This document shows positions 1,892 to 16,440 of a stretch of DNA of 16,440 bases, piece after piece. The DNA is from a bacterium. GTDB taxonomy: Bacteria > Zhuqueibacterota > Zhuqueibacteria > Oceanimicrobiales > Oceanimicrobiaceae. A program made the translations under genes and the position numbers. The stretch covers positions 1 to 16,440 of the forward strand of contig JBHHXT010000103.1 of the NCBI GenBank assembly GCA_046757165.1, written 5' to 3'. The notes beneath the pieces were generated by a model. The model did no database searches, was not told the DNA's origin, and saw only the letters and a program-made list of their open reading frames with translations. How positions within the stretch are numbered: position 1 is the first letter of the stretch; each line of letters opens with the position of its first letter.

Positions 1892-2014
1892 GACATGCGA
1901 TACCCTTGTGCCCCACAGGCACGCTGTGCAGGCGGACACCCTTTTCCGGGCTGAGTTATGGAACAAGGTTCCGTTCAGCATGCACGCCAGTATCATGACG
2001 AATCGGGAGGGATC

Positions 2015-2779
2015 ATGTTACGAGCGATTGTCCACCCTGTCTCGCCCCGGATCACAGAGTGTGAGCTGACCCACCTGGAAAGAACGCCGATCGACCCCAA
2101 GCTGGCCGCGCAGCAGCATCAGGCGTATTGTGCCCTGCTGCGGGACCTCGGGGTCCAGGTCGTCGAATTGAGTGCGAAAGAGGTCTTCCCTGATGCTGTT
2201 TTCGTCGAGGACACGGCCGTCGTCTTCGATGACGTCGCGGTCAGCACCAATATGGGCGCGGCCTCGCGCCGTGGAGAAGTTGCGGCGGTTGAAGCCGTGC
2301 TGAGCAAGCACCGGTTGCTCGCACGTGTCCAGCCGCCGGCCACTCTCGAGGGCGGCGATGTCGTGCTGATCGGCAACACAGTGTTTGTCGGCAGAACCGG
2401 GCGCACCAACAACGCCGGAATTCGAGCGTTGCGGCACATTTTGCAGCGATTTGACTACCACGTTCTGACGGTCGAAACCCGGGGGTGCCTGCACCTCAAA
2501 TCGGCCGTTACCGCCATCAGTGAGCGCTCCCTGCTGGTCAATCCCGATTGGGTCGATCTGACGCCCTTTTCCGATTTCAATGTTATCACCGTCGATGAAA
2601 GTGAGCCCCGGGCCGCCAATGCCTTTTACCTCGAGGAAACCGTGTGCTTGCATGCCGGCTTTCCCAAAACCGTTGCGCTGTTGCGCGAGTTGGAGTTCAA
2701 GGTCGCCACGGTCGATATCTCGGAGTTCCTCAAGGCAGAGGGCGGGCTCTCCTGCTTGAGTATTCGTTTTCAAGCTTGA
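2015..2779 (+). CDS. ddaH: N(G),N(G)-dimethylarginine dimethylaminohydrolase (amidinotransferase/pentein superfamily)
   Basis: Motifs FPDAVFVEDTAV, RRGEV, LEGGDV, LHLKS and C-terminal KAEGGLSCLS with the catalytic Cys. GGGAGG RBS at 2005-2010 favours ATG 2015 over 1958. Confidence 0.88.
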   Translation: MLRAIVHPVSPRITECELTHLERTPIDPKLAAQQHQAYCALLRDLGVQVVELSAKEVFPDAVFVEDTAVVFDDVAVSTNMGAASRRGEVAAVEAVLSKHRLLARVQPPATLEGGDVVLIGNTVFVGRTGRTNNAGIRALRHILQRFDYHVLTVETRGCLHLKSAVTAISERSLLVNPDWVDLTPFSDFNVITVDESEPRAANAFYLEETVCLHAGFPKTVALLRELEFKVATVDISEFLKAEGGLSCLSIRFQA

Positions 2780-5276: not shown

Positions 5277-5678
5277 ACTGGCCAGCGTGCGACCGATGGA
5301 GTGGCCGCCGAGTAAAAAAAATGTTAACAAGGTTTAATAGCGCCTGCGGAACTCCACCAGAAAGGACAGGGTAAGTTTCATGTTATCATTTTGTCATTTC
5401 TTCAGTGCAGCGAAAAGGAGGTGGTCATACTTAATGAGATTCACAAACGTTGTTCTCAGTAGTCTCACTGCCAGCGATTGTCCTGTTTATTTGCTTAGCA
5501 TCCTTCCCCCCTCTGCAATATTTTCCATCGTGGATGATTTTCTATAGCTTGCTTCGCGGCCCAGATCCTATTTCTTGACTCGCGTATTCACATTGATTCA
5601 TGTTCTGTAAGGCATTCCTGGCGACTCAGGATATCACTTTGCGGTGTTTAGTTACTCACCAGGTAGGAGGTGTTGGCT

Positions 5679-7073
5679 ATGGAAGCGTTGGTCATTGCAG
5701 CGGGCATGGGCAGGCGCTTGAACCACCGAACTTCACCAAAACCCCTCGCCCGCCTGCTCGGTCTTAGTCTTATCGAGAGAACCATCCATGTTGCGAAGCA
5801 GGCTGGAATTACCGGATTCAAAATTGTGGTCGGATACCAGGGTACACGGATTATGCAGACGCTCGGCACAGGAGCGAAATACGGCAACACCATCGACTAC
5901 ATTCACAATCGGGCGTGGCCGAAAGGCAACGGAACGTCCGTGCTGGCCGCGAGGTGCGCTATCGAGCCCCCTTTTGTGCTGCTGATGGCCGACCACCTGT
6001 GCGAGGAAAGCCTGCTCGCTGACTTGATCAAGTGCCAGGTACGAGAGGGCGAGTGTGTCCTGGCCATTGACCGAAATCTTAAAAGCAGCCATTTCAGCCT
6101 GGATGATGTGACCCGGGTTCATGCTGAAAATGGGCTGGTGACCCGGATCGGCAAAAGCGTCCACCGGTACAACGCGCTGGATACCGGGTTTTTTTTGTGC
6201 TCGTCTGCTATTTTCGACGCCCTGGAGCGCACCGTCGCCCGGGGACGTTACGATCTGTCGTCCGGCAACCAGATTCTGGCGGACATGAGCGCGCTCCGCA
6301 CGCTGGACGTGACGGGTAAGCTCTGGATCGATGTCGACGACGAGGTGGCTTACCGGAAAGCCCGGCGCATCCTGCTCGACAGTCTGGTCAAGCCCACCGA
6401 CGGGCCGGTCTCGAAACAATTGAATCGCAAGATCTCGGCAAGAATCTCAGCTTTGCTTTCGAGCCTGAAGGTCACGCCCAATCACTTGACCGTGTTCAGC
6501 TTCGTGGTCGCAGCGATTTCTGCGTTCTGTTTCTTTCAGGCAACCCCACTGTGGATCATGGTGGGCGGCGTACTGGCACAGATTTCCTCTATCCTCGATG
6601 GCTGCGACGGGGAAATCGCACGGCTCAAGTTTCAGCACAGTTTCTTCGGCGCGTGGCTCGACCGGGTGCTGGACCGGTATGCGGATGGCTTGATCCTTCT
6701 GGGCATGAGCTATGCGGTCTGGCATCATTCTTCGAACCCAATGGTCTGGCTGGTGGGCGGGCTGGCTCTGATGGGGACGTTCATGAATAGCTACACCGCG
6801 GTTGCGTATGACAAGCTGCTGGCAAGGCGGGCGGCCAAAAGAAAATTCACCTTCCGGATGGGCCGGGACGTGAGACTCTTCGCCATTTTCGTCGGCGCTG
6901 TTTTTAACCAATTGTGGGCGATACTCGTTGGCTTGATGCTGATCACAAACTTCGAGTCGATTCGTCGCTTGTTCGCTTTGAGGCATGTACCGCCAGGCCG
7001 TCAGATCACTGGAAAACGCGTTGCTAAAGATTATCTCCCGCTCGGAGGTGCCGGAGGATTTAGCACACGCTGA
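5679..7073 (+). CDS. Bifunctional NTP transferase / CDP-alcohol phosphotransferase, IPCT/DIPPS-like (di-myo-inositol-phosphate pathway type)
   Basis: N-terminal IAAGMGRRL...PKPL nucleotidyltransferase motif with MADH, DTGFF and WIDVD; linker DGPVSKQLNRKIS; TPNHLT; full CDP-alcohol phosphotransferase motif DGCDGEIAR-x8-GAWLDRVLD; about 6 TM segments. AGGAGG RBS supports ATG 5679. Confidence 0.85.
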   Translation: MEALVIAAGMGRRLNHRTSPKPLARLLGLSLIERTIHVAKQAGITGFKIVVGYQGTRIMQTLGTGAKYGNTIDYIHNRAWPKGNGTSVLAARCAIEPPFVLLMADHLCEESLLADLIKCQVREGECVLAIDRNLKSSHFSLDDVTRVHAENGLVTRIGKSVHRYNALDTGFFLCSSAIFDALERTVARGRYDLSSGNQILADMSALRTLDVTGKLWIDVDDEVAYRKARRILLDSLVKPTDGPVSKQLNRKISARISALLSSLKVTPNHLTVFSFVVAAISAFCFFQATPLWIMVGGVLAQISSILDGCDGEIARLKFQHSFFGAWLDRVLDRYADGLILLGMSYAVWHHSSNPMVWLVGGLALMGTFMNSYTAVAYDKLLARRAAKRKFTFRMGRDVRLFAIFVGAVFNQLWAILVGLMLITNFESIRRLFALRHVPPGRQITGKRVAKDYLPLGGAGGFSTR

Positions 7074-7816: not shown

Positions 7817-8770
7817 ATGTTTGAAAAAATCAAAGCCGCGCGGGAGCGTTTGCGCGGCCAGGCTCATGTGACTCCTGTGATGACTTCCCGCACCCTGAAC
7901 GACCGGGTCGGGGCAGAGATTTTTCTGAAATGCGAGAATTTTCAGCGCGTCGGGGCGTTCAAATTTCGCGGCGCCTACAACGCGATTTCACAGTTGACCC
8001 GGACGCAGAAGGCCGCTGGCGTGTTGACCTACTCCTCCGGCAATCATGCCCAGGCGGTGGCGCTGTCCGGCAGGCTGCTCGGCGTCAAGACGACCATCGT
8101 GATGCCGAACGATGCCTCGGCGATCAAACGTGCGGCCACCGAGGCTTATGGGGCGACCATCATCGAATACGATCCGCTGCAGGCCACGCGTGAGGACCTG
8201 GCGCAAGTGGTCAACCGGGAGCGGGCCTTGACGCTCATTCCGCCGTATGACCACGAGGCGGTCATTGCAGGGCAGGGCACCGCAGCCCTGGAGCTGTTCG
8301 AACAAGTCGACGGCCTGGACATGGTGCTGGCGCCGTGTGGCGGCGGTGGGCTGCTCAGCGGAACGGCGGTCGCAGCGAAGTACCTGCGTCCGGGCTGCAA
8401 GGTCATCGGTATCGAGCCGGAGCTGGCGGACGATGCCACCCGCTCCTTCCACAGCAAAACCCTGCACACGGTCCACAACCCGCCCACCATCGCCGACGGA
8501 ACGCGTACGCCCTACCTGGGGCAGCTCACCTTTCCCCTTGTGCTGCAATACGTGGACGACATGAAAACCGTCTCGGAGGCGGCCATCGTGGAGGCGGTGC
8601 GTTTCCTTTTCACCCGTTTGAAGCTGGTCGTCGAGCCTTCTGGCGCACTGGGCATTGCTGCGCTGCTCAGCGGTGCGGTTGCGCCAGGCAAGCGCACCGG
8701 GGTCATCATCAGCGGCGGGAACATCGACGGTGAGACGATGGCCATGATCTTAAAAACGGCGCAACCCTAG
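7817..8770 (+). CDS. PLP-dependent fold-type II Ser/Thr dehydratase-family enzyme (threo-3-hydroxy-L-aspartate ammonia-lyase / serine racemase-like)
   Basis: LKCENFQRVGAFKFRGA (PLP lysine), YSSGNHAQA, GQGT, CGGGGLLSG, TIADG, VEPSGA and SGGN. At 317 aa it has no C-terminal ACT regulatory domain, so it is not biosynthetic IlvA. Confidence 0.9.
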   Translation: MFEKIKAARERLRGQAHVTPVMTSRTLNDRVGAEIFLKCENFQRVGAFKFRGAYNAISQLTRTQKAAGVLTYSSGNHAQAVALSGRLLGVKTTIVMPNDASAIKRAATEAYGATIIEYDPLQATREDLAQVVNRERALTLIPPYDHEAVIAGQGTAALELFEQVDGLDMVLAPCGGGGLLSGTAVAAKYLRPGCKVIGIEPELADDATRSFHSKTLHTVHNPPTIADGTRTPYLGQLTFPLVLQYVDDMKTVSEAAIVEAVRFLFTRLKLVVEPSGALGIAALLSGAVAPGKRTGVIISGGNIDGETMAMILKTAQP

Positions 8771-8824
8771 TCCTCGTTCAAATACGAACCCCTCGATGGG
8801 TTGTCCAAAGAGGTTGCGAGATAT

Positions 8825-8966
8825 GTAACGGGGCTGTCCAAAAAGTCGAAAACGAGCGATGATTTGTCATTCCTGCGAAAGCAGGAATCCATAAAAATCA
8901 ATAGGTTATAGATTCCCGCTTTCGCGGGATGACACGAAGAGCGGGCTTTTGGGACAGCCCCGCTAC
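8825..8966. mobile_element. Nested REPIN/MITE-like element
   Basis: Outer imperfect inverted repeats GTAACGGGGCTGTCCAAAAAGTC and GGCTTTTGGGACAGCCCCGCTAC enclose two inverted REP hairpins, TGTCATTCCTGCGAAAGCAGGAATC (8865-8889) and GATTCCCGCTTTCGCGGGATGACA (8911-8934). No transposase in the window. Confidence 0.75.
8896..8908 (+). promoter_or_regulatory. IHF consensus site at the centre of the REP doublet
   Basis: AATCAA-TAGG-TTA is an exact match to WATCAANNNNTTR. Confidence 0.55.
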
Positions 8967-8986
8967 TAGCTAGAGCCTCAACGAGT

Positions 8987-9008
8987 CACAACATGAATGT
9001 TGTGTTAC
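8987..9008. repeat. Palindrome ending in GTTAC (REP-like)
   Basis: CACAACAT-GA-ATGTTGTG is a perfect 8-bp inverted repeat followed by TTAC, the same architecture as the 9075/14307 repeat. Confidence 0.55.
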
Positions 9009-9074
9009 ACGACTTTGCCGGCTTCTGAGACATCCCCTTCCCCACCTGAACCTGACCACGAATTGGCCGCGATT

Positions 9075-9101
9075 TCGCTAGCAAGATGCTTGCGTTACTT
9101 T
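9075..9101. repeat. 27-bp palindromic repeat, left copy
   Basis: TCGCTAGCAAGATGCTTGCGTTACTTT is 26/27 identical to 14307-14333, in the same orientation. Confidence 0.9.
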
Positions 9102-9420
9102 CACTCCGAGCCTTGATAAGCTGTCAAGCCCCCTCGAGTGTCATTTATGATGCTTTCCCACCTGAGCCTGGCGCACCCACACCGGACCTTGCGCCCGGGA
9201 TGGCAACTGCTCGACTCCGCTCTCCGGCACTCGGAAAATCATCCCCGCTGATGAGAAAATCCCGCCGTCATGTAACGTTTCGTTACGTCTCGTTTTTTTG
9301 CATGTGTAGCGTTTTGTGAGTCGTTGGCTTTGGCAAAGCATCGCCGGCGAAATGTGGTTATGTTGATAAGTGTTGTTAAAACAAGTTAATAGATCTGGTT
9401 CGATAGCTGCCTTTACTTTG

Positions 9421-9435
9421 TGGCACACCTTTTGT
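9421..9435 (+). promoter_or_regulatory. Candidate sigma54 (-24/-12) promoter for the four-gene operon
   Basis: TGGCAC-ACCTT-TTGT has a perfect -24 box and correct spacing, but GT instead of the consensus GC at -12. Confidence 0.4.
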
Positions 9436-9508
9436 GATACAGGCAGACCAAATTCATGATAATGAAGATGACTGGAAGCTCAAAAGTGGATGAGGATGCG
9501 TTCCGAAC

Positions 9509-10408
9509 ATGATAAGCAAACTGACAGACAACACAAGCATGGGTGCCCCCAATGGGAAGACACATCGCGTCAAAGCAGAGATGATAGTTCTCGGCGTCGT
9601 GCTTCTTGGGTTTCCCCTTCTCCTGATGGCGCTGAAACTATTTCCATGGCAAGGAGCCTCGGCGATGGCCGGGATGTTTTCTTTGAGCAGGTTGCCTCTA
9701 CCGATTCTTCCTCACGTTCAGCGACTGATGTTGATGTCGCTGGGTGCGGTCATCGTGGTCATATTCCGGCTGACCCTTGGCATTCGAGTTCTGGGCCCGG
9801 TACGCCCCATTCTGATCGCGTTAGCCTACCAACTAACGGGCTTTGTGGTAGGCACGGTTTTTCTTGTATCCGTCATGATTATCATTGCGATGATACGCCC
9901 GCTGCTCAGGTCAGCCGGAATGCCTTATTTTGCGCGCATTGCCATTGTCTTGAGCCTGGTCGCACTTATGGTCCTGATCGTTTTGGAAATAGGTCTGGCC
10001 ATAGGCATGGATGAGTGTCTGCGGGTCGGCCTTCTGCCGGTGGTTGTTTTGACTTTTGCCGCCGAGGGGTTTGCCAAGACCCTTTACAAAGAAGGCCTCA
10101 AATCGGCAGTCTGGCGGGCGCTGATGACCATCATTGTCGCCGTTTTGATCTACGAGCTGACTAACTTTCCGGGAATGCATGAATTTGTCCTACGTTTTCC
10201 TGAGCTGCTGCTTATTCAAATCGGCTTGATCTATTTGGTTGGACGCTGCTGTAAATTCCACGCGCTGGAGTTTGTCAATCCAAAGCCAAAGCCCAGGAAA
10301 TCAAGAACCGGAAAAAGGACAAGGAGAAAGGTGAACCAGGAAAAGCACGTGCCCTTCTCCGATGGATCGTCTCTTTTGCTTGGTGCGAGTAACGCAAACT
10401 TATCTTGA
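9509..10408 (+). CDS. Multi-pass membrane protein of the 7TM_transglut family, without the usual inactive transglutaminase domain
   Basis: Segments RLTLGIRVLGPVRPILIALAY, GLLPVVVLTFAAEGF and FPELLLIQIGLIYLVGR resemble the family motifs as I recall them (R-x2-IG-x-x-TFGTFxPxLIALAF, LFPMVILTxxIER, FPELLL...GRY). About 8 hydrophobic segments and a basic C-terminal tail. Start uncertain (9509, 9539 or 9581). Confidence 0.78.
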   Translation: MISKLTDNTSMGAPNGKTHRVKAEMIVLGVVLLGFPLLLMALKLFPWQGASAMAGMFSLSRLPLPILPHVQRLMLMSLGAVIVVIFRLTLGIRVLGPVRPILIALAYQLTGFVVGTVFLVSVMIIIAMIRPLLRSAGMPYFARIAIVLSLVALMVLIVLEIGLAIGMDECLRVGLLPVVVLTFAAEGFAKTLYKEGLKSAVWRALMTIIVAVLIYELTNFPGMHEFVLRFPELLLIQIGLIYLVGRCCKFHALEFVNPKPKPRKSRTGKRTRRKVNQEKHVPFSDGSSLLLGASNANLS

Positions 10409-10440
10409 ACCCTAACTTACTTCAACAGGAGGACTTCGAA

Positions 10441-11508
10441 ATGAAGGTGGCGGTTGTTCGGAATCGGAAAAATGAAGGCATCATCAACAAGTTCGGTAGA
10501 AAGAGTCCCGAGACTTATGGCAAGAAATCAGTGGTGAGGGTGATGGATGCGTTAAACGCTGGCGGACACGAGATCAGCGTCATGGAAGGGGATATGTCCT
10601 TGTTCCAGAATCTGCAAGAATTCATCCCGCCTGACAGGACTGGTTGCCCGACGGGCCTGGTCTTCAATATGTCTTACGGCATTCAGGGGGACTGTCGTTA
10701 TACCCATGTGCCCGGGATGTTGGAGATGGCGGGGATTCCGTACATCGGCGCCAATCCTCTGGGCCATTCCCTGGCGCAAGACAAAGTGATCACCAAAATC
10801 CTGTTGCAGAGCGCGGGTATTCCAACTCCGAAAATGTGTGTCATGCAAACGCCGGACAGGGGGGCCGCACAAGGGCTGCGCTATCCGCTGGTGGTCAAGC
10901 CGCGCCATGAATCGAGTAGTTGCGGCCTGCATCTGGTTCACGAGTACGACCAATTAGTGACCGCTGTTCTTTCGGTGACGGCGCAATTCCAGCAGGAAGC
11001 GCTGGTGGAAGAATTCGTCCAGGGACGGGAATTTTGTGTGGGCGTTCTCGGCAACGAAGCGCTCGAGATTCTCCCCTTTGTCGAGCTGGACTTCAACGGC
11101 CGCGCCAATCCGCTGTTGACGCGGGATGACAAATTTCACAAAACAATCGACGAGCCCCGCAAGCTCTGCCCGGCACCGGTCGACTATGACCTCGAAAAAC
11201 GCGTCAAAGACATCGTCGAGCAGACCTTCCGGGTTTGCCACTGTAAGGACTTTGCCCGCGTGGACTTACGTGTCGATCCCTTTGGCAACCCTTATGTGCT
11301 GGAGATCAATTCCATGGCCTCACTCGGCCAGGGCGGGTCGTTTGTGCTGGGCGCCAGAGGCGCCGGATACTCCTTTGACAGCCTGATCAATCGTATTGTG
11401 GATATCGCCTGCAGCCGTTACGGGCTACGCACGGAACAGCCCATGCTGGGCATTCCCAAGGGCCAACCCCCCTGCAACATTCAACCTCGACATCACCTGG
11501 CAGCCTGA
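10441..11508 (+). CDS. ATP-grasp ligase, D-Ala-D-Ala ligase-like fold but non-canonical (probably not the cell-wall Ddl)
   Basis: LEMAGIPYIG, QDKVITK, YPLVVKPRHESSSCGL, LVEEFVQGREFCVG, ARVDLR and VLEINSMASL. Lacks Ddl GGxSxEHxVS and LHGxxGEDG. AGGAGG at 10427-10432 supports ATG 10441. Confidence 0.88.
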   Translation: MKVAVVRNRKNEGIINKFGRKSPETYGKKSVVRVMDALNAGGHEISVMEGDMSLFQNLQEFIPPDRTGCPTGLVFNMSYGIQGDCRYTHVPGMLEMAGIPYIGANPLGHSLAQDKVITKILLQSAGIPTPKMCVMQTPDRGAAQGLRYPLVVKPRHESSSCGLHLVHEYDQLVTAVLSVTAQFQQEALVEEFVQGREFCVGVLGNEALEILPFVELDFNGRANPLLTRDDKFHKTIDEPRKLCPAPVDYDLEKRVKDIVEQTFRVCHCKDFARVDLRVDPFGNPYVLEINSMASLGQGGSFVLGARGAGYSFDSLINRIVDIACSRYGLRTEQPMLGIPKGQPPCNIQPRHHLAA

Positions 11509-11511
11509 ACG

Positions 11512-12888
11512 ATGTCAGATTTGAACTTTAGATCGTTGGTTAGCGCCCTGGCCATCATGGCGATGTCGGGTCCGGCGAGCTCCGGCACGAAGGACTCTTT
11601 GGAAGTCAAGGGTCAAGAACGGCTTGAAAGACAAGGCCCCGTCCTTGTCTCCACCATCGAGCAGCGTCGGCCATCCTGGGGACAGAGATCAAAAGGATCG
11701 GCCCCCGCACCTGGATTATCCAAACGCAGATCAACCTTGATCAAGCTTGCCGGAAAGATCAAGTTGGTCAACAACACGCGTGTTGCGGACATTCCTGAAG
11801 AAGAAGTGTCCGGCCGCACCAGGCGCTATCTCAAATTGCAGACAACTGTTCGGGCACGCCTGTCCAAACATCTGCGCGGTTACGGTCGCATCGAGTTTTT
11901 CTGGCGCGACCGGTCCCGGGCGGACACGGGATCTTCTTCCTGGCACAAAGTCGATTTTGCCGTCCGGGACCTCTATTTCTCTCTGCGTGGGCTGGCCGGC
12001 GTGCACGGGCTGCGATTCCGGGTGGGCCGGCAACGATTCCGCGACCGGTTCACCTGGCTGATGGACAGCCGCCTGGACGCGCTGCAACTCAGATACAGGA
12101 GAAAAGGGCTGAGTTTGTCCTTTGCCGTGAGTAAGAAATTAGGCCAGGCTGTGACCAACCGCGATCAATTGCACGCCATCGGCAATGTCCACCTTCGCGT
12201 TGTTCCAGGCTTGCATGCCACTTTCTTTGCGATCAAGGAAATCGATCAACGTCAAGGGCGGGACAATCCGCTTTGGCTGGCCATCCAGACGCACGGCAAA
12301 TTCTCCAGGTTTGAATGGTGGGCACAAGCAGCAAGATATTCAAGCCAGCGCGGCGAAATTGCCTATCGAGGATACGGCGTGGACTCCGGTGTCATCATCC
12401 GACTGCTTTCGAAACGAAGCGGACCGTTTGTCTCCTACCACTTTGCTTACGGCTCTGCAGACGACAAGGAGACCGAAACCGTGCGAGAGCGGTTCAGACA
12501 GCCGCAGCTCCAGCTCAATTATTACCGCCACGGCGGACCGAAAAGAAGCTACTACTACGGCTCCCTGCTCACCCCTGAGCTGTCGAATCTAAGATTTCAA
12601 GCTTTCGGCCTGGGCTATGTTTTCTCGCAGCACTTCTCTATCCAGGGGACCTGGCGCAGCTATCGCCAGGTGAACGCTTCCGAAACGATTCGCAGCAACA
12701 GCCTCGGTCTCTCACCAGAGGGGCTCGATAGTGGCTTAGGAAATAGCGCCGAGGGGCTTTTGTCTTGGTTCCTGCGGAAGCGTTTACAGCTTTCTTTGGC
12801 AGGGGAGTGGTTTTTCCCGGGGCCTGCCTTTGCCTCCGGAACGACCCCGCTCTTCGGACTCCGCAGTGAGCTGCTTTTTTACTTTTGA
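11512..12888 (+). CDS. Alginate-export-family (AlgE-like) outer-membrane beta-barrel porin
   Basis: Signal peptide; amphipathic beta-strands; motifs VGRQRFRD-x3-WLMD-x2-DA, AYGS...FRQPQLQLN and YYYG-x4-PELSNL resembling AlgE; C-terminal LRSELLFYF beta-signal. Confidence 0.78.
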   Translation: MSDLNFRSLVSALAIMAMSGPASSGTKDSLEVKGQERLERQGPVLVSTIEQRRPSWGQRSKGSAPAPGLSKRRSTLIKLAGKIKLVNNTRVADIPEEEVSGRTRRYLKLQTTVRARLSKHLRGYGRIEFFWRDRSRADTGSSSWHKVDFAVRDLYFSLRGLAGVHGLRFRVGRQRFRDRFTWLMDSRLDALQLRYRRKGLSLSFAVSKKLGQAVTNRDQLHAIGNVHLRVVPGLHATFFAIKEIDQRQGRDNPLWLAIQTHGKFSRFEWWAQAARYSSQRGEIAYRGYGVDSGVIIRLLSKRSGPFVSYHFAYGSADDKETETVRERFRQPQLQLNYYRHGGPKRSYYYGSLLTPELSNLRFQAFGLGYVFSQHFSIQGTWRSYRQVNASETIRSNSLGLSPEGLDSGLGNSAEGLLSWFLRKRLQLSLAGEWFFPGPAFASGTTPLFGLRSELLFYF

Positions 12889-12904
12889 ACATGAGGAATA
12901 ACAA

Positions 12905-14278
12905 ATGCACATGCACCGGTATCACTCAGAACAGAACGCCAACCAGGACCATCATTATCGGTCCTATTCACTCCATAATTTTCAACAGCTTCCGCAGATC
13001 CAAAAGTTGAGTGCGCAGCAGCGGTTTGAAATGGAAGTTGTCGGTCGAGTTCTCCCTTTCAAGACAAACAACTATGTGGTTGACGAGCTCATCAATTGGG
13101 ATGCGGTGCCGCACGACCCGATTTTCAATCTGACCTTTCCTCAACGGGAGATGCTCCAGGCAGCGCATTTCGACCGCATGGCGCGGGCACTTAAAGAAGG
13201 CAAAAGCAAAACCGCCATCAATTCTCTGGCCAATGAAATTCGCCTGCAGCTCAATCCGCATCCGGCCGGGCAAACGGAACACAACGTACCCCGCCTCAAT
13301 GGCAGGAAACTCGTCGGCCTCCAGCATAAATACAAAGAAACGGTGCTGTTTTTCCCGAGCCAGGGGCAGACCTGCCACGCCTATTGCTCATATTGCTTTC
13401 GATGGCCGCAATTCGTCGGGTTGGATGCGCTGAAATTCGCCCGTCGAGAAACCCAATCCTTGCGCTCTTATCTGAGACAGCACCCGGAAGTCACTGACGT
13501 GCTGTTGACCGGCGGCGACCCGATGATCATGAACGCTCGCTTGCTTCGGACCTATCTCGTGCCCCTTCTGGAGGATACCACTCTGGCCAGCCTGCGCAGC
13601 ATCAGAATCGGCACCAAGTCCCTGTCCTTTTGGCCGTACAAGTTTATCGATGACCCGCAGGCCGATGAAATACTCTTCTTGTTTCGCAAAATCGTAGACT
13701 CCGGCAAACATCTGGCGATCATGGCGCATTTCTCTCATCCGCGGGAGATGTCAACGGATGCGGTTCGACGGGCGATACGAAGCATTCGGGCGACGGGAGC
13801 GGAGATCAGAACGCAAGCCCCGATCCTGCGGCACATCAATGACAACGCTGAGGATTGGGCGGAGATGTGGCAGCAGCAGGTGCAGCTGGGCTGCGTCCCT
13901 TACTACATGTTCGTCGTTCGGGATACCGGCGCACAACATTATTTCGGCGTGCCTCTGGTTGAAGCCTGGCAAATATTTCGAGAGGCATTCCAAAGCGTGA
14001 GTGGGCTGGCCAGGACGGTGCGCGGCCCCAGCATGTCGACGACGCAGGGCAAGATCCAGGTCGTCGGGGTCAATGAAATCAACGGTGAAAAGGTCATTGT
14101 GCTCAACATGTTGCAGGCGCGTGACCCCGCTCTGGTCAATCAACCCTATTTTGCCAGATATGATGAAAAAGCCATCTGGATCGATGATCTGGAGATTATC
14201 TCGGACGTTCGCCCGCGAGCAAAATCAGCACAAAAGAATGGCCAGGCGATCAATTATGAGGGTCGGCTCGCCGCCTGA
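12905..14278 (+). CDS. KamA-family radical SAM/PLP amino-acid 2,3-aminomutase (lysine 2,3-aminomutase-like)
   Basis: GLQHKYKETVL, CxxxCxxC cluster motif (CHAYCSYCFR), DVLLTGGDP, IRIGTK, HFSHPRE, IND, PYYMF and a GK (STTQGKIQV) where the PLP lysine is expected; GAGGA RBS. Substrate not determinable by eye. Confidence 0.92.
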   Translation: MHMHRYHSEQNANQDHHYRSYSLHNFQQLPQIQKLSAQQRFEMEVVGRVLPFKTNNYVVDELINWDAVPHDPIFNLTFPQREMLQAAHFDRMARALKEGKSKTAINSLANEIRLQLNPHPAGQTEHNVPRLNGRKLVGLQHKYKETVLFFPSQGQTCHAYCSYCFRWPQFVGLDALKFARRETQSLRSYLRQHPEVTDVLLTGGDPMIMNARLLRTYLVPLLEDTTLASLRSIRIGTKSLSFWPYKFIDDPQADEILFLFRKIVDSGKHLAIMAHFSHPREMSTDAVRRAIRSIRATGAEIRTQAPILRHINDNAEDWAEMWQQQVQLGCVPYYMFVVRDTGAQHYFGVPLVEAWQIFREAFQSVSGLARTVRGPSMSTTQGKIQVVGVNEINGEKVIVLNMLQARDPALVNQPYFARYDEKAIWIDDLEIISDVRPRAKSAQKNGQAINYEGRLAA

Positions 14279-14306: not shown

Positions 14307-14333
14307 TCGCAAGCAAGATGCTTGCGTTACTTT
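14307..14333. repeat. 27-bp palindromic repeat, right copy (may double as a terminator)
   Basis: TCGCAAGCAAGATGCTTGCGTTACTTT contains the perfect stem CGCAAGCA / TGCTTGCG followed by TTACTTTTT, 28 nt after the aminomutase stop. Confidence 0.9.
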
Positions 14334-14670: not shown

Positions 14671-16440
14671 TCAGGCAGTCACGGTTCCGGCAGCGCTGGA
14701 ACGATGGACCAGAAAGACGCCCAATGCCGCCACCGAAATCGTTGTGAGGACGACGAGCGGAGAAACAGGCGCCTCGCCCGTGAGCCAGCCGAAATGTGCT
14801 CCAAACTCCGGGTAAGACAAGATCAGCACCGCCAGGCCATTGTTGAGCGAATGGCCGATGATGGAAAGATAAATCGACCCGGTTTTGTAGACGATGAACG
14901 TGAAGTACAGACCGACCAGCGCGGTGGGAACGAGACGGAAAATGTGGATGTGGAAAATCCCGAACAAAATCGCAACGCTCAGGACGGCAACTGTCGGGGA
15001 CATCCGCTCTTTAAGAGACGACAAAAGGAGACCCCGAAAAAGAAGCTCCTCACAAATTCCGGGTGAAACAGCAAAAACGAACAACCCAAGTGCAGGATGT
15101 ATTCCCGTACTCTGCAGATTCAATAGTTTCTCCATAACCTCGCCGATCCTGGCCGATTCTGGAAACAGTTTGACTTGCAGTTGAGCAACCCAAACGGTTA
15201 AGGCCAGCCCCGCAAGGGTAATCAATAGCGTTCCCAGCAAAGCCATGGCGGAGAAACCTTTTAAACAGAGAGCTGTGCGATAATTCACTTTGTTGTACCA
15301 GATGGCCAGCACGACCGGCAGGAAGATCAACAGCCACTCCGTGATGAACAGGCCCCAATGTTTCAACCGCAACTGCGCCAGCGGGGCCAGATAAAAAAGC
15401 AAGACCAGGATGAAAGAGAGCACAAGCATCGCGTTCGCCGGCTGCAAGACGTGCTCGGGTGTGATTTCCGACCGGCGGAACGAAAACTGCCAGCCCTTCC
15501 TTTCTGCAAAGAGGATTTCTTCGGCATTGAAGAGCTTTGAAAAAATCAGAATCGCCAGAAACGCGAACACGGTGTTGGATAGAAAGACTGCAAAAACCAG
15601 TTCCGTGGTCATCGTCTGTAGCAGCACCTCTTTGAACAGCAAAGCCACATTGAGGATGGGAATCAACGCCAGGAAATGTGTCAACTCGATGCCCGGAGCT
15701 AAAGCAAAGAACGCGGGCATCATAAGAACAAGGTAAAACGGCGTGATGAGGTTCTGGGCGTCCTTGAAAGAACGAGCAAAAAGACTGATGGACAGCATGA
15801 GCGCGCTGATAAATAAAGCCAGTGGCACGATGGCGAGGAAGAGGATGAGCACCACAAGGGGTGAAAACGCAAGCTCCAGCTTTCCGGAAAGCACGCCCAA
15901 GTGAATAAACCCGACAGAATAGGCAAGTGACATGGAAAACAAATTGAGAAATCCCGTTATGCATGCAACAGTGGAGACGGTGAGAAACTTGCCGAGCAGA
16001 AGCTCCTGCCGCGAGACTGGAACCGTTAGAATGGTTTCCAGCGTCCCCCGCTCTTTCTCACCGGCGGTCAAGTCGATGGCTGGATACATTGCGCCCAACA
16101 TCAGCGTGACGATGAGCAACAGCGGGATGATGAACCCAAGCACCATGCCGCCCATGCGAGCCGGACTGGCTGTGTTGACCTCTCTGACGCCGATGGGATC
16201 CAGCACAGCCAGATCAACCGCTGCTTCCCGCAACATGCGTTCTTGCAGGGTCCTCTTATAGATTTGCACAACGTTCTGCAGCCGCTCCCTCGCCAGACGG
16301 GAACGGTCCATGGCCGCATCAAAACAGATAAAAAGCGAGTCCAGGGATGCGAAGCGTTTGATTTCCAGATACGCCTGGATCGTCCCCGCCTTATGGCGGC
16401 ACTGCGAACGCTACGAACAAACGATTCCATGAATAATGCA
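14671..16440 (-). CDS. NatB-like ABC-2 permease fused to a CPBP (CAAX/Abi) intramembrane metalloprotease domain; 5'-partial, with an apparent frameshift near 16390
   Basis: Permease motif YPAIDLTAGEKERGTLETILTVPVSRQELLLGK and FARSFKDAQ; CPBP motifs GICEELLFRG, FGIFH and HSLNN. The frame stays open upstream of 16311 as far as a TAG at 16411-16413. Confidence 0.85.

Follow-up and report, generated by a model that had tools for sequence, protein, structure and literature searches.

Organization of the Locus

The window analyzed here is a 16,440-nt stretch of DNA that forms the entire contig C103 (JBHHXT010000103.1) of a 6.09-Mb bacterial metagenome-assembled genome (completeness 99.98%, contamination 0.02%). 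It carries a cassette of four open reading frames (ORFs) that encode: (i) a seven-helix (7TM) membrane protein, (ii) an ATP-grasp ligase resembling D-Ala-D-Ala ligase (Ddl), (iii) an AlgE-like outer-membrane β-barrel, and (iv) a radical S-adenosylmethionine (SAM) aminomutase of the KamA family (Table 1). The four genes are co-oriented and separated by gaps of 32, 3 and 16 nt. They are preceded by 738 nt (8771-9508) in which no plus-strand ORF of at least 80 aa is found, and are followed by a terminator-like hairpin (14308-14326, with an 8-bp stem and a T-rich tail) that starts 30 nt past the cassette stop codon. This layout bears out the initial annotation of the DNA, which described a four-gene operon between about 740 bp of non-coding DNA and a hairpin and assigned the four proteins to the families now matched by profile (PF14402, PF07478, PF13372 and, below its cut-off, TIGR00238). 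The true start of the 7TM protein may lie a few codons after position 9509. For the ligase, homology to relatives begins at the ATG at 10441, and the longest ORF begins at a TTG at 10405.

Table 1. Features of the cassette and its flanks, in window coordinates.
Feature	Position	Strand	Basis or remark
7TM_transglut membrane protein, stand-alone	9509..10408	+	PF14402, 299 aa
Ddl-like ATP-grasp ligase, apparently not the housekeeping Ddl	10441..11508	+	PF07478, 355 aa
AlgE-like outer-membrane β-barrel	11512..12888	+	PF13372, 458 aa
Divergent KamA-family radical-SAM aminomutase	12905..14278	+	TIGR00238, below cut-off, 457 aa
Terminator-like hairpin with T-rich tail, the downstream hairpin-repeat copy	14307..14333	+	8-bp stem
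27-nt hairpin repeat, upstream copy	9075..9101	+	Direct repeat D1, 96% identical to 14307-14333
Weak sigma-70-like promoter match	9434..9463	+	9/12 matches, 46 nt before the 7TM start
MITE-like (miniature inverted-repeat transposable element-like) dispersed repeat, ~140 nt	8823..8962 (approximate ends)		blastn copies elsewhere in the genome

Conservation of the Cassette

The four genes form one conserved unit. They recur, headed by a γ-glutamyltranspeptidase (GGT) gene, in the order GGT-7TM-ligase-barrel-KamA on contigs of two genomes that represent sister genera of the source genome (G013:C236, the same contig as locus L003, and G012:C18) and on one metagenome contig (L091), with protein identities of 52-79%. 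A neighborhood check thus finds the set together beyond the source genome. Within the source genome, a paralogous GGT-7TM-ligase-barrel set on C42 is without KamA, and its three shared proteins are 68, 69 and 58% identical to those of the window. The shortest version, on G013:C593, has the 7TM and ligase genes only; no barrel gene lies in the 0.9 kb that remain to the contig end, where an ORF with a heavy-metal-resistance domain occupies the opposite strand. At L092, the 7TM protein and the ligase are encoded by one ORF. Overall, seven close copies of the cassette are found, with GGT in four, the barrel in five and KamA in four. Its distribution is narrow: the 7TM profile matches four of 167 genomes of the phylum, namely three cassette carriers of one family plus one genome with an RloB-type protein, and a metagenome scan yields only two loci of the cassette's 7TM type.

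The GGT proteins of these and related loci are predicted to be cytoplasmic. None of seven aligned sequences has a signal peptide, and all keep a GETTH or GDTTH catalytic motif. A gene for a receiver-only response regulator lies just past the cassette at L091 (8501-8944, same strand) and past the C42 copy (L081, 6848-7294, opposite strand); the window is without it.

The 7TM Protein and Its Coupling to the Ligase

The 7TM protein passes the PF14402 cut-off with ease (92.1 bits versus 25, residues 56-255, E = 5e-26). Against the RloB model NF052267 it reaches 71.9 bits versus a cut-off of 900, and its match is limited to positions 300-499 of 508. Since these positions cover only the C-terminal 7TM part of RloB, the protein lacks the inactive-transglutaminase domain, and the 7TM_transglut label given to it at the outset fails for its transglutaminase half. 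Its relatives of at least 49% identity form about 13 clusters, followed by about 34 clusters of stand-alone 7TM proteins at 32-43%; full-length RloB-like proteins of about 500 aa with PF14400 are about 30% identical. The AlphaFold2 model is all-helical (pLDDT, the predicted local distance difference test, 84.8). Foldseek finds no PDB entry at E <= 0.001 for this model (best E 0.9), and a wide VIA-align search peaks at a Z score of 7.3 (6.8-6.9 for RnfA/NqrE and ALMT), a value in the noise range of helical bundles. The C-terminal tail is rich in Lys and Arg (11 R+K versus 2 D+E) and is predicted to be cytoplasmic.

Natural fusions of the 7TM protein to the ligase are found in P0321 (622 aa), in which the 7TM part is followed by a C-terminal ligase, and as single ORFs at L092, L105, L106 and L107. 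These fusions show that the two proteins form a working pair whose ligase part faces the cytoplasm, much as the initial annotation supposed in pairing them. Among 401 genomes sampled from the phylum of G167, whose seed record is labelled Acidobacteria, 6 have a PF14402-type match; three are 7TM-ligase fusions, and each of the three has a gene for an HlyD-family membrane-fusion protein directly upstream. For about 9 kb around these three fusions there is no GGT, barrel or KamA gene. HlyD adaptors work with exporters. Their presence at the fusions, together with the AlgE-like barrel in the cassette, supports an export direction, and the 7TM protein looks like an export component of the inner membrane, as had been proposed. 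The 7TM-ligase pair forms the core of the system, to which KamA is an add-on.

A Ddl-Like Ligase with an Altered Substrate Loop

The ligase matches PF07478 (111 bits, E = 5.6e-32) and falls below every curated Ddl cut-off, with best scores of 159.6 versus 243 (NF002378) and 140.4 versus 245.65 (TIGR01205). When aligned to E. coli DdlB (phmmer, PDB 1IOW), it is identical at K215, R255, D257, E270 and N272, the catalytic residues for ATP/Mg binding and transition-state stabilization. At DdlB positions 216, 281 and 282, where Y216, S281 and L282 bind D-Ala, the ligase has F, G and S. Its N-terminal domain, which in DdlB holds E15, does not align. With the catalytic set intact, the enzyme looks active, and its substrate loop is altered. 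A separate Ddl-like gene, 29% identical, is present on C255 of the same genome, and Nitrosopumilaceae archaea have ligase domains at 45-48% identity. These two findings, the changed D-Ala2 loop and the scores below the Ddl cut-offs argue that the cassette ligase is not a D-Ala-D-Ala ligase. The assignment to the ATP-grasp family stands, while the RimK-type partner expected for a 7TM_transglut protein gives way to a Ddl-like one.

With 1326 proteins at E <= 1e-30, the ligase belongs to a large family. Many members, from Planctomycetota, Verrucomicrobiota, Acidobacteriota, Eisenbacteria and Gammaproteobacteria, are at 55-61% identity; the fusion P0321 is one of them. The 401 genomes of the G167 phylum give a single ligase match at E <= 1e-60, and this sample did not reach the 55-61% ligases. 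Tandem pairs of Ddl-like ligase genes are seen in seven genomes of the class. One such pair, at L089 (G028:C22, 5594-9320), stands beside a canonical lysine-2,3-aminomutase-type gene with LAM_C, and the locus adjoins carbamoyl-phosphate synthase genes and a sigma-54 two-component pair.

The AlgE-Like Barrel

The identification of the third protein as an AlgE-like porin is upheld by profile and fold. It matches PF13372 at 40.8 bits versus a cut-off of 25.2 (E 1.6e-10), and Foldseek of its model (pLDDT 83.6) returns AlgE in all of the top 16 rows (template-modeling (TM) score 0.68-0.72, best E 5e-22); the next family, at 8e-13, is nine orders of magnitude behind. The N-terminus is signal-peptide-like. 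The protein is strongly basic, with a pI of 10.8 and 72 R+K versus 37 D+E. The genome encodes a second AlgE-like barrel (G000:C37; L114, 6129-10922), which matches PF13372 at 108 bits and has an N-terminal DUF5666 domain. This second barrel closes an operon of exopolysaccharide type with a family-28 glycosyltransferase, an NAD epimerase/dehydratase and a DUF2334 protein, adjoined by a tetratricopeptide repeat (TPR) protein. A Pfam scan of the window finds neither a glycosyltransferase nor a TPR scaffold.

A Divergent Clade of KamA-Family Aminomutases

The aminomutase scores 117 bits against TIGR00238 (cut-off 199.2, E 8e-34) and lies far below all five of the more specific models (e.g., AblA, 103 versus 525, and glutamate 2,3-aminomutase, 82 versus 650). 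Pfam assigns no family at E <= 0.01, and the LAM_C domain is not detected. Even so, the KamA-family call holds for a divergent member. The three cysteines of the CxxxCxxC motif (C157, C161 and C164), which marks the [4Fe-4S]/SAM site, are invariant in 20 of 20 aligned members of the subfamily and align with the motif of lysine 2,3-aminomutase (PDB 2A5H), as does R166 with R134 of that enzyme. An invariant K383 lies 16 residues beyond the end of the alignment at 2A5H residue 321, the offset expected for the pyridoxal phosphate (PLP)-binding lysine, Lys337 in the Clostridium enzyme. At the distal substrate site, the invariant R339 aligns with D293, and the position expected for Asp330, judged by offset only, holds an invariant Ser376. 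In lysine 2,3-aminomutase, Asp293 and Asp330 bind the ε-ammonium group of lysine. Because a basic residue replaces Asp293, an acidic amino acid is predicted as the substrate. No bona fide TIGR04368 enzyme, with which the Lys/Asn signature of glutamate 2,3-aminomutase could be compared, is present in the control genomes, and a literature search on glutamate 2,3-aminomutase found nothing.

The KamA subfamily is very widespread and mostly stand-alone. Neighborhoods were compared for the best 80 genome loci of at least 600 confirmed stretches; the full four-gene cassette is present at one (L003), and ligase-like matches lie near KamA at four. Since one in 80 of these loci has the cassette, KamA is an add-on and not the heart of the system. 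More common is a gene for an MscS-like channel, which adjoins KamA divergently in 30 of the 80 loci, mostly in Thaumarchaeota (the MscS-type call comes from a Pfam scan of one cluster member). In 14 loci, KamA neighbors a gene for a putatively glutamine-synthetase-like protein of about 480 aa. Bacterial and archaeal members of the clade (L004-L065 being the Thaumarchaeota loci) are 60-76% identical and share the Arg at the Asp293 position.

The source genome has a second KamA gene, 67% identical, that stands alone on its contig C18 (L082, 4871-9765) between a peptidase S58 gene and a convergent gene for a class I/II aminotransferase. S58 is the DmpA/BapA family, which includes β-aminopeptidases. 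The KamA copies of the cassettes group as a separate clade (support 99/95) when 31 KamA sequences are placed in a maximum-likelihood tree, and this stand-alone copy falls outside it.

A Related Ligase-M20 Cassette and Osmolyte Genes

A second architecture of the ligase, at 42-47% identity, is its fusion to an M20 peptidase, followed by GGT. It is found at L087 (G030:C1), L088 (G007:C147) and L049 (a Nitrosopumilus metagenome-assembled genome). At L087 and L049 the GGT gene is followed by one for an FGase-family amidohydrolase; the L088 contig ends directly behind GGT. Next to FGase, on its downstream side, L087 has a gene for an MscS-type channel, and the L049 set lies beside an MscS gene and a KamA gene. 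The ligase-M20-GGT-FGase cassette is common to bacteria and Thaumarchaeota, with ligase-M20-GGT present in three of five thaumarchaeal genomes probed, not always adjoining KamA. The KamA clade may be a candidate source of β-glutamate in ammonia-oxidizing archaea. A literature search found no paper assigning an archaeal KamA gene to β-glutamate synthesis. For one such archaeon, Nitrosopumilus maritimus, a β-glutamate concentration of 730 mM is reported (PMC8269262).

Within the window, a plus-strand gene at 5670-7073, 2.4 kb upstream of the cassette, encodes a bifunctional inositol-1-phosphate cytidylyltransferase/di-myo-inositol-phosphate synthase (NF041135, 288 bits versus a cut-off of 580), with a paralogue of 37% identity on C32. 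Di-myo-inositol-phosphate synthase is encoded by a compatible-solute gene typical of thermophiles.

Comparison with Known Systems

Judged by family and domain content, the cassette would be a variant of the Rlo-type 7TM/ATP-grasp systems and not a member of the RloB, Ddl, lysine 2,3-aminomutase, alginate or PgsBCA groups. The closest known system is RloBC of Pseudomonas. In P. aeruginosa, rloABC pairs the gene of a PF14402 protein with an ATP-grasp ligase gene, and mutants without the secreted proteases lose their hypo-osmotic defect when rloB or rloC is deleted (PMC11957051). The same report presents 7TM_transglut/ATP-grasp pairs as widespread and ties them in Pseudomonas to osmotic tolerance, antibiotic sensitivity, biofilm and cell shape (PMC11957051). 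Searches of the literature on inactive transglutaminase, ATP-grasp and 7TM proteins returned only the Rlo and membrane-vesicle papers as relevant.

Both RloBC and the cassette place a seven-helix PF14402 protein of the inner membrane beside a cytoplasmic ATP-grasp ligase, and both have a companion hydrolase for acidic peptides and a link to osmotic or envelope functions. By contrast, the cassette 7TM protein is without the periplasmic inactive-transglutaminase domain, the ligase is Ddl-like instead of RimK-like, sister cassettes carry a cytoplasmic GGT, and the AlgE-like barrel and KamA are added. Of 14 ORFs scanned in the window, none gives a retropepsin-type Pfam match (no search for one was made in the rest of the genome). 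The view that the combination had not been described before therefore needs qualification: the 7TM/ATP-grasp pair is already predicted and genetically studied as RloBC, and the set of KamA, barrel and GGT is a variant of it. A classical RloB-type protein of 529 aa, with an N-terminal domain and the 7TM part, is encoded in the same phylum at L111 (G095:C434, 3942-7392), where its neighbors are an ATPgrasp_ST/RimK-like ligase and an M14 zinc carboxypeptidase in place of the retropepsin.

The poly-γ-glutamate systems PgsBCA and CapBCADE consist of an amide ligase, small membrane proteins, the GGT-family enzyme CapD and a racemase, and occur in monoderms without an outer-membrane barrel. PgsB/CapB belongs to the Mur-ligase family, and CapD is secreted. 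An amide ligase, membrane proteins and a GGT-family enzyme are likewise associated with the cassette and its sisters, with the aminomutase here as a counterpart to the racemase there. Yet the cassette has an ATP-grasp enzyme as its sole ligase, PF14402 is unrelated to PgsC and PgsA, and the GGT of sister cassettes has no signal peptide. The poly-γ-glutamate logic invoked in the initial annotation is strengthened by the GGT that heads four of the seven close copies. In its working logic the cassette resembles both RloBC and the poly-γ-glutamate systems.

Of the other reference proteins, AlgE (PDB 3RBH, 4AFK) has the same barrel fold (TM 0.72), the PF13372 family and the basic composition in common with the cassette barrel. 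The two are only 17% identical, the cargo would be a peptide and not a polysaccharide, and no Alg8/Alg44-type glycosyltransferase, AlgK or AlgX is present in the cassette. The aminomutase resembles lysine 2,3-aminomutase in its CxxxCxxC motif, the Arg at Arg134 and the invariant Lys at the PLP-lysine offset. It differs from the lysine and glutamate 2,3-aminomutases in falling below every NCBIfam cut-off and in the undetected LAM_C, and from the former in having Arg for Asp293 and in belonging to a separate clade widespread in bacteria and Thaumarchaeota. The ligase shares with DdlB (PDB 1IOW/2DLN) the ATP-grasp fold and the five catalytic residues, and departs from it in F/G/S at 216/281/282, in the unaligned N-terminal domain, and in having relatives fused to 7TM or M20 domains.

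Proposed Function and Alternative Explanations

The chemistry of the cassette is likely of glutamate type and anionic, with glutamate or β-glutamate as the putative substrate, because of KamA R339, the GGT in sister cassettes and after the ligase-M20 fusions, and the basic barrel and 7TM tail. In a tentative model, possible if short of probable, the cassette would make and export an anionic (β-)glutamyl oligomer or polymer. The cytoplasmic Ddl-like ligase would condense glutamate and/or β-glutamate into the oligomer or polymer, KamA would supply the β-amino acid, and the product would be handed to the 7TM protein of the inner membrane and leave the cell via the basic AlgE-like barrel. Use of β-glutamate by the ligase is plausible but optional. 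The direction of transport and the length of the product are matters that we infer, and an envelope or osmotic role is suggested by analogy with Pseudomonas RloBC and by the osmolyte and MscS genes beside relatives.

A bolder version is improbable. Here the cassette would perform synthase-dependent secretion of a β-peptide, in which a new clade of glutamate 2,3-aminomutases forms β-glutamate, an ATP-grasp enzyme docked at the membrane polymerizes it, and the poly-(β/γ)-glutamate passes through a 7TM channel and the AlgE-type barrel. If true, this would be the first β-amino-acid exopolymer made independently of the ribosome and of nonribosomal peptide synthetases, and it would show chemically, for the first time, what any Rlo-type 7TM/ATP-grasp system makes. 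The cassette is of value: KamA, with its basic distal substrate site, and the GGT of sister cassettes narrow the chemistry, the barrel offers a recognizable exit pore, and KamA and GGT together give a testable guess at the product of a poorly understood class of envelope ligases.

Several observations weigh against synthesis and export of such a product. The call on the KamA substrate depends on one aligned residue and on the roles of residues in lysine 2,3-aminomutase. Of 41 relatives, 10 have KamA and 5 have a member of the ligase subfamily, and KamA is mostly ligase-independent; in the reverse direction, no KamA is found in G030 (93% complete), which has a ligase-M20 fusion. The composition of the cassette varies, in that the window is without GGT, C42 is without KamA and G013:C593 is without the barrel in its 0.9 kb. 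The full cassette is also rare and narrow in distribution, and because its 7TM type occurs in 3 of 167 genomes of the phylum, all of one family, and at only two metagenome loci, shared descent could account for part of the conservation. No solved transporter matches the 7TM model significantly. Ddl-type ligases usually make dipeptides and normally not polymers, and the predicted cytoplasmic location of GGT is unlike that of the secreted CapD of poly-γ-glutamate systems.

The main rival to export is a cytoplasmic compatible-solute module, in which KamA would form free β-glutamate, the ligase would make a small β- or γ-glutamyl dipeptide osmolyte, GGT would recycle the dipeptide, and the 7TM protein and barrel would act only as valves for release or re-uptake when osmolarity shifts. 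This explanation is unlikely, though it has a real chance. A dipeptide is the usual product of Ddl-type enzymes, and a predicted cytoplasmic GGT suits such a cycle, as do the MscS-type genes beside the KamA subfamily in 30 of the 80 best loci and the di-myo-inositol-phosphate synthase gene 2.4 kb upstream in the window. The set of ligase-M20, GGT, FGase and MscS at L087, its counterpart beside MscS and KamA at L049, and the 730 mM β-glutamate reported for N. maritimus (PMC8269262) point the same way. However, the 7TM-ligase fusions that follow HlyD adaptors suit coupled export and not a soluble pool, an AlgE-type barrel would be unusual as a valve for small solutes, and MscS is not part of the 7TM-type cassettes examined. 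An improbable alternative is envelope modification, where the ligase would add an amino acid, possibly β-glutamate, to an acceptor that is membrane-bound or bound for the periplasm (for instance a protein tail, a cell-wall precursor or the head group of a lipid). The 7TM protein would present this acceptor or flip it, and the barrel would be accessory or unrelated. Phenotypes of related systems are in line with this role: Pseudomonas rloB/rloC mutants are altered in cell shape, ampicillin sensitivity and biofilm (PMC11957051), and Shewanella makes more membrane vesicles when an RloB homologue is disrupted (PMC12096838). The Ddl-like fold of the ligase also fits, but the cassette is without a conserved acceptor gene, and the C-termini of the 7TM proteins are unlikely to be tagged substrates because they are not conserved. 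Homologous ligase domains also occur in Thaumarchaeota, which have no murein.

The remaining explanations are very unlikely. Uptake and catabolism of external γ- or β-glutamyl peptides, with import by the barrel and 7TM protein, cleavage by GGT and conversion of β-glutamate to glutamate by KamA, would accord with the reversibility of the aminomutase reaction, the catabolic role of KamA in clostridia and the hydrolytic nature of GGT. It is hard to reconcile with an ATP-consuming amide ligase as the most conserved partner of the 7TM protein, fused to it in some cases, or with HlyD adaptors, which belong to exporters. The chance that KamA and/or the barrel gene are mere neighbors of a functional 7TM-ligase pair is likewise slight. 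The presence of the cassette in only one of the 80 best KamA loci, the varied composition of the copies, and the three G167-phylum fusions without barrel, GGT or KamA within about 9 kb are what such an arrangement would produce; against it, four contigs share the gene order, with proteins 52-79% identical, and the KamA clade of the cassette is separate from the stand-alone paralogue of the same genome.

Flanking DNA and Neighboring Genes

Much of the gap upstream of the cassette is dispersed repeat. When 8771-9508 is compared with the genome by blastn, copies of the ~140-nt element are found on C52, C135, C63, C5, C262 and C30 (84-92% identity over 104-141 nt), with shorter copies on further contigs. 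A 95-aa ORF on the minus strand (9141-9428) has no Pfam match. No trace of a decayed GGT gene is detected in the gap, since tblastn with three GGT proteins gives nothing better than E = 4. In the cassette region, the 738-nt leader included, nothing matches Rfam at E values up to 1, and a tRNA search finds none. The promoter scan performs no better than chance, with three sites in the region versus 2.9 expected from shuffles. The 18-nt core of the hairpin repeat occurs 19 times in the genome, usually within a longer conserved unit of about 60 nt. The two 27-nt direct repeats that flank the cassette were considered as ends of a mobile cassette, a role that is rejected because the element is dispersed, as these core copies attest.

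Other genes of the window encode a dimethylargininase-like protein (1958-2779, plus strand) that is below its family cut-off, a PLP enzyme (7817-8770, plus strand) above the cut-off for threo-3-hydroxy-L-aspartate ammonia-lyase (482 versus 452) and, convergent with the cassette, an ABC-2 permease fused to a CPBP (Rce1-like) intramembrane protease (14671-16311, minus strand; NF041647, 583 bits versus 435). The DNA is carried by four DNA sequencing runs and by no listed RNA run; the four are all from a single study labelled hydrothermal vent metagenome.

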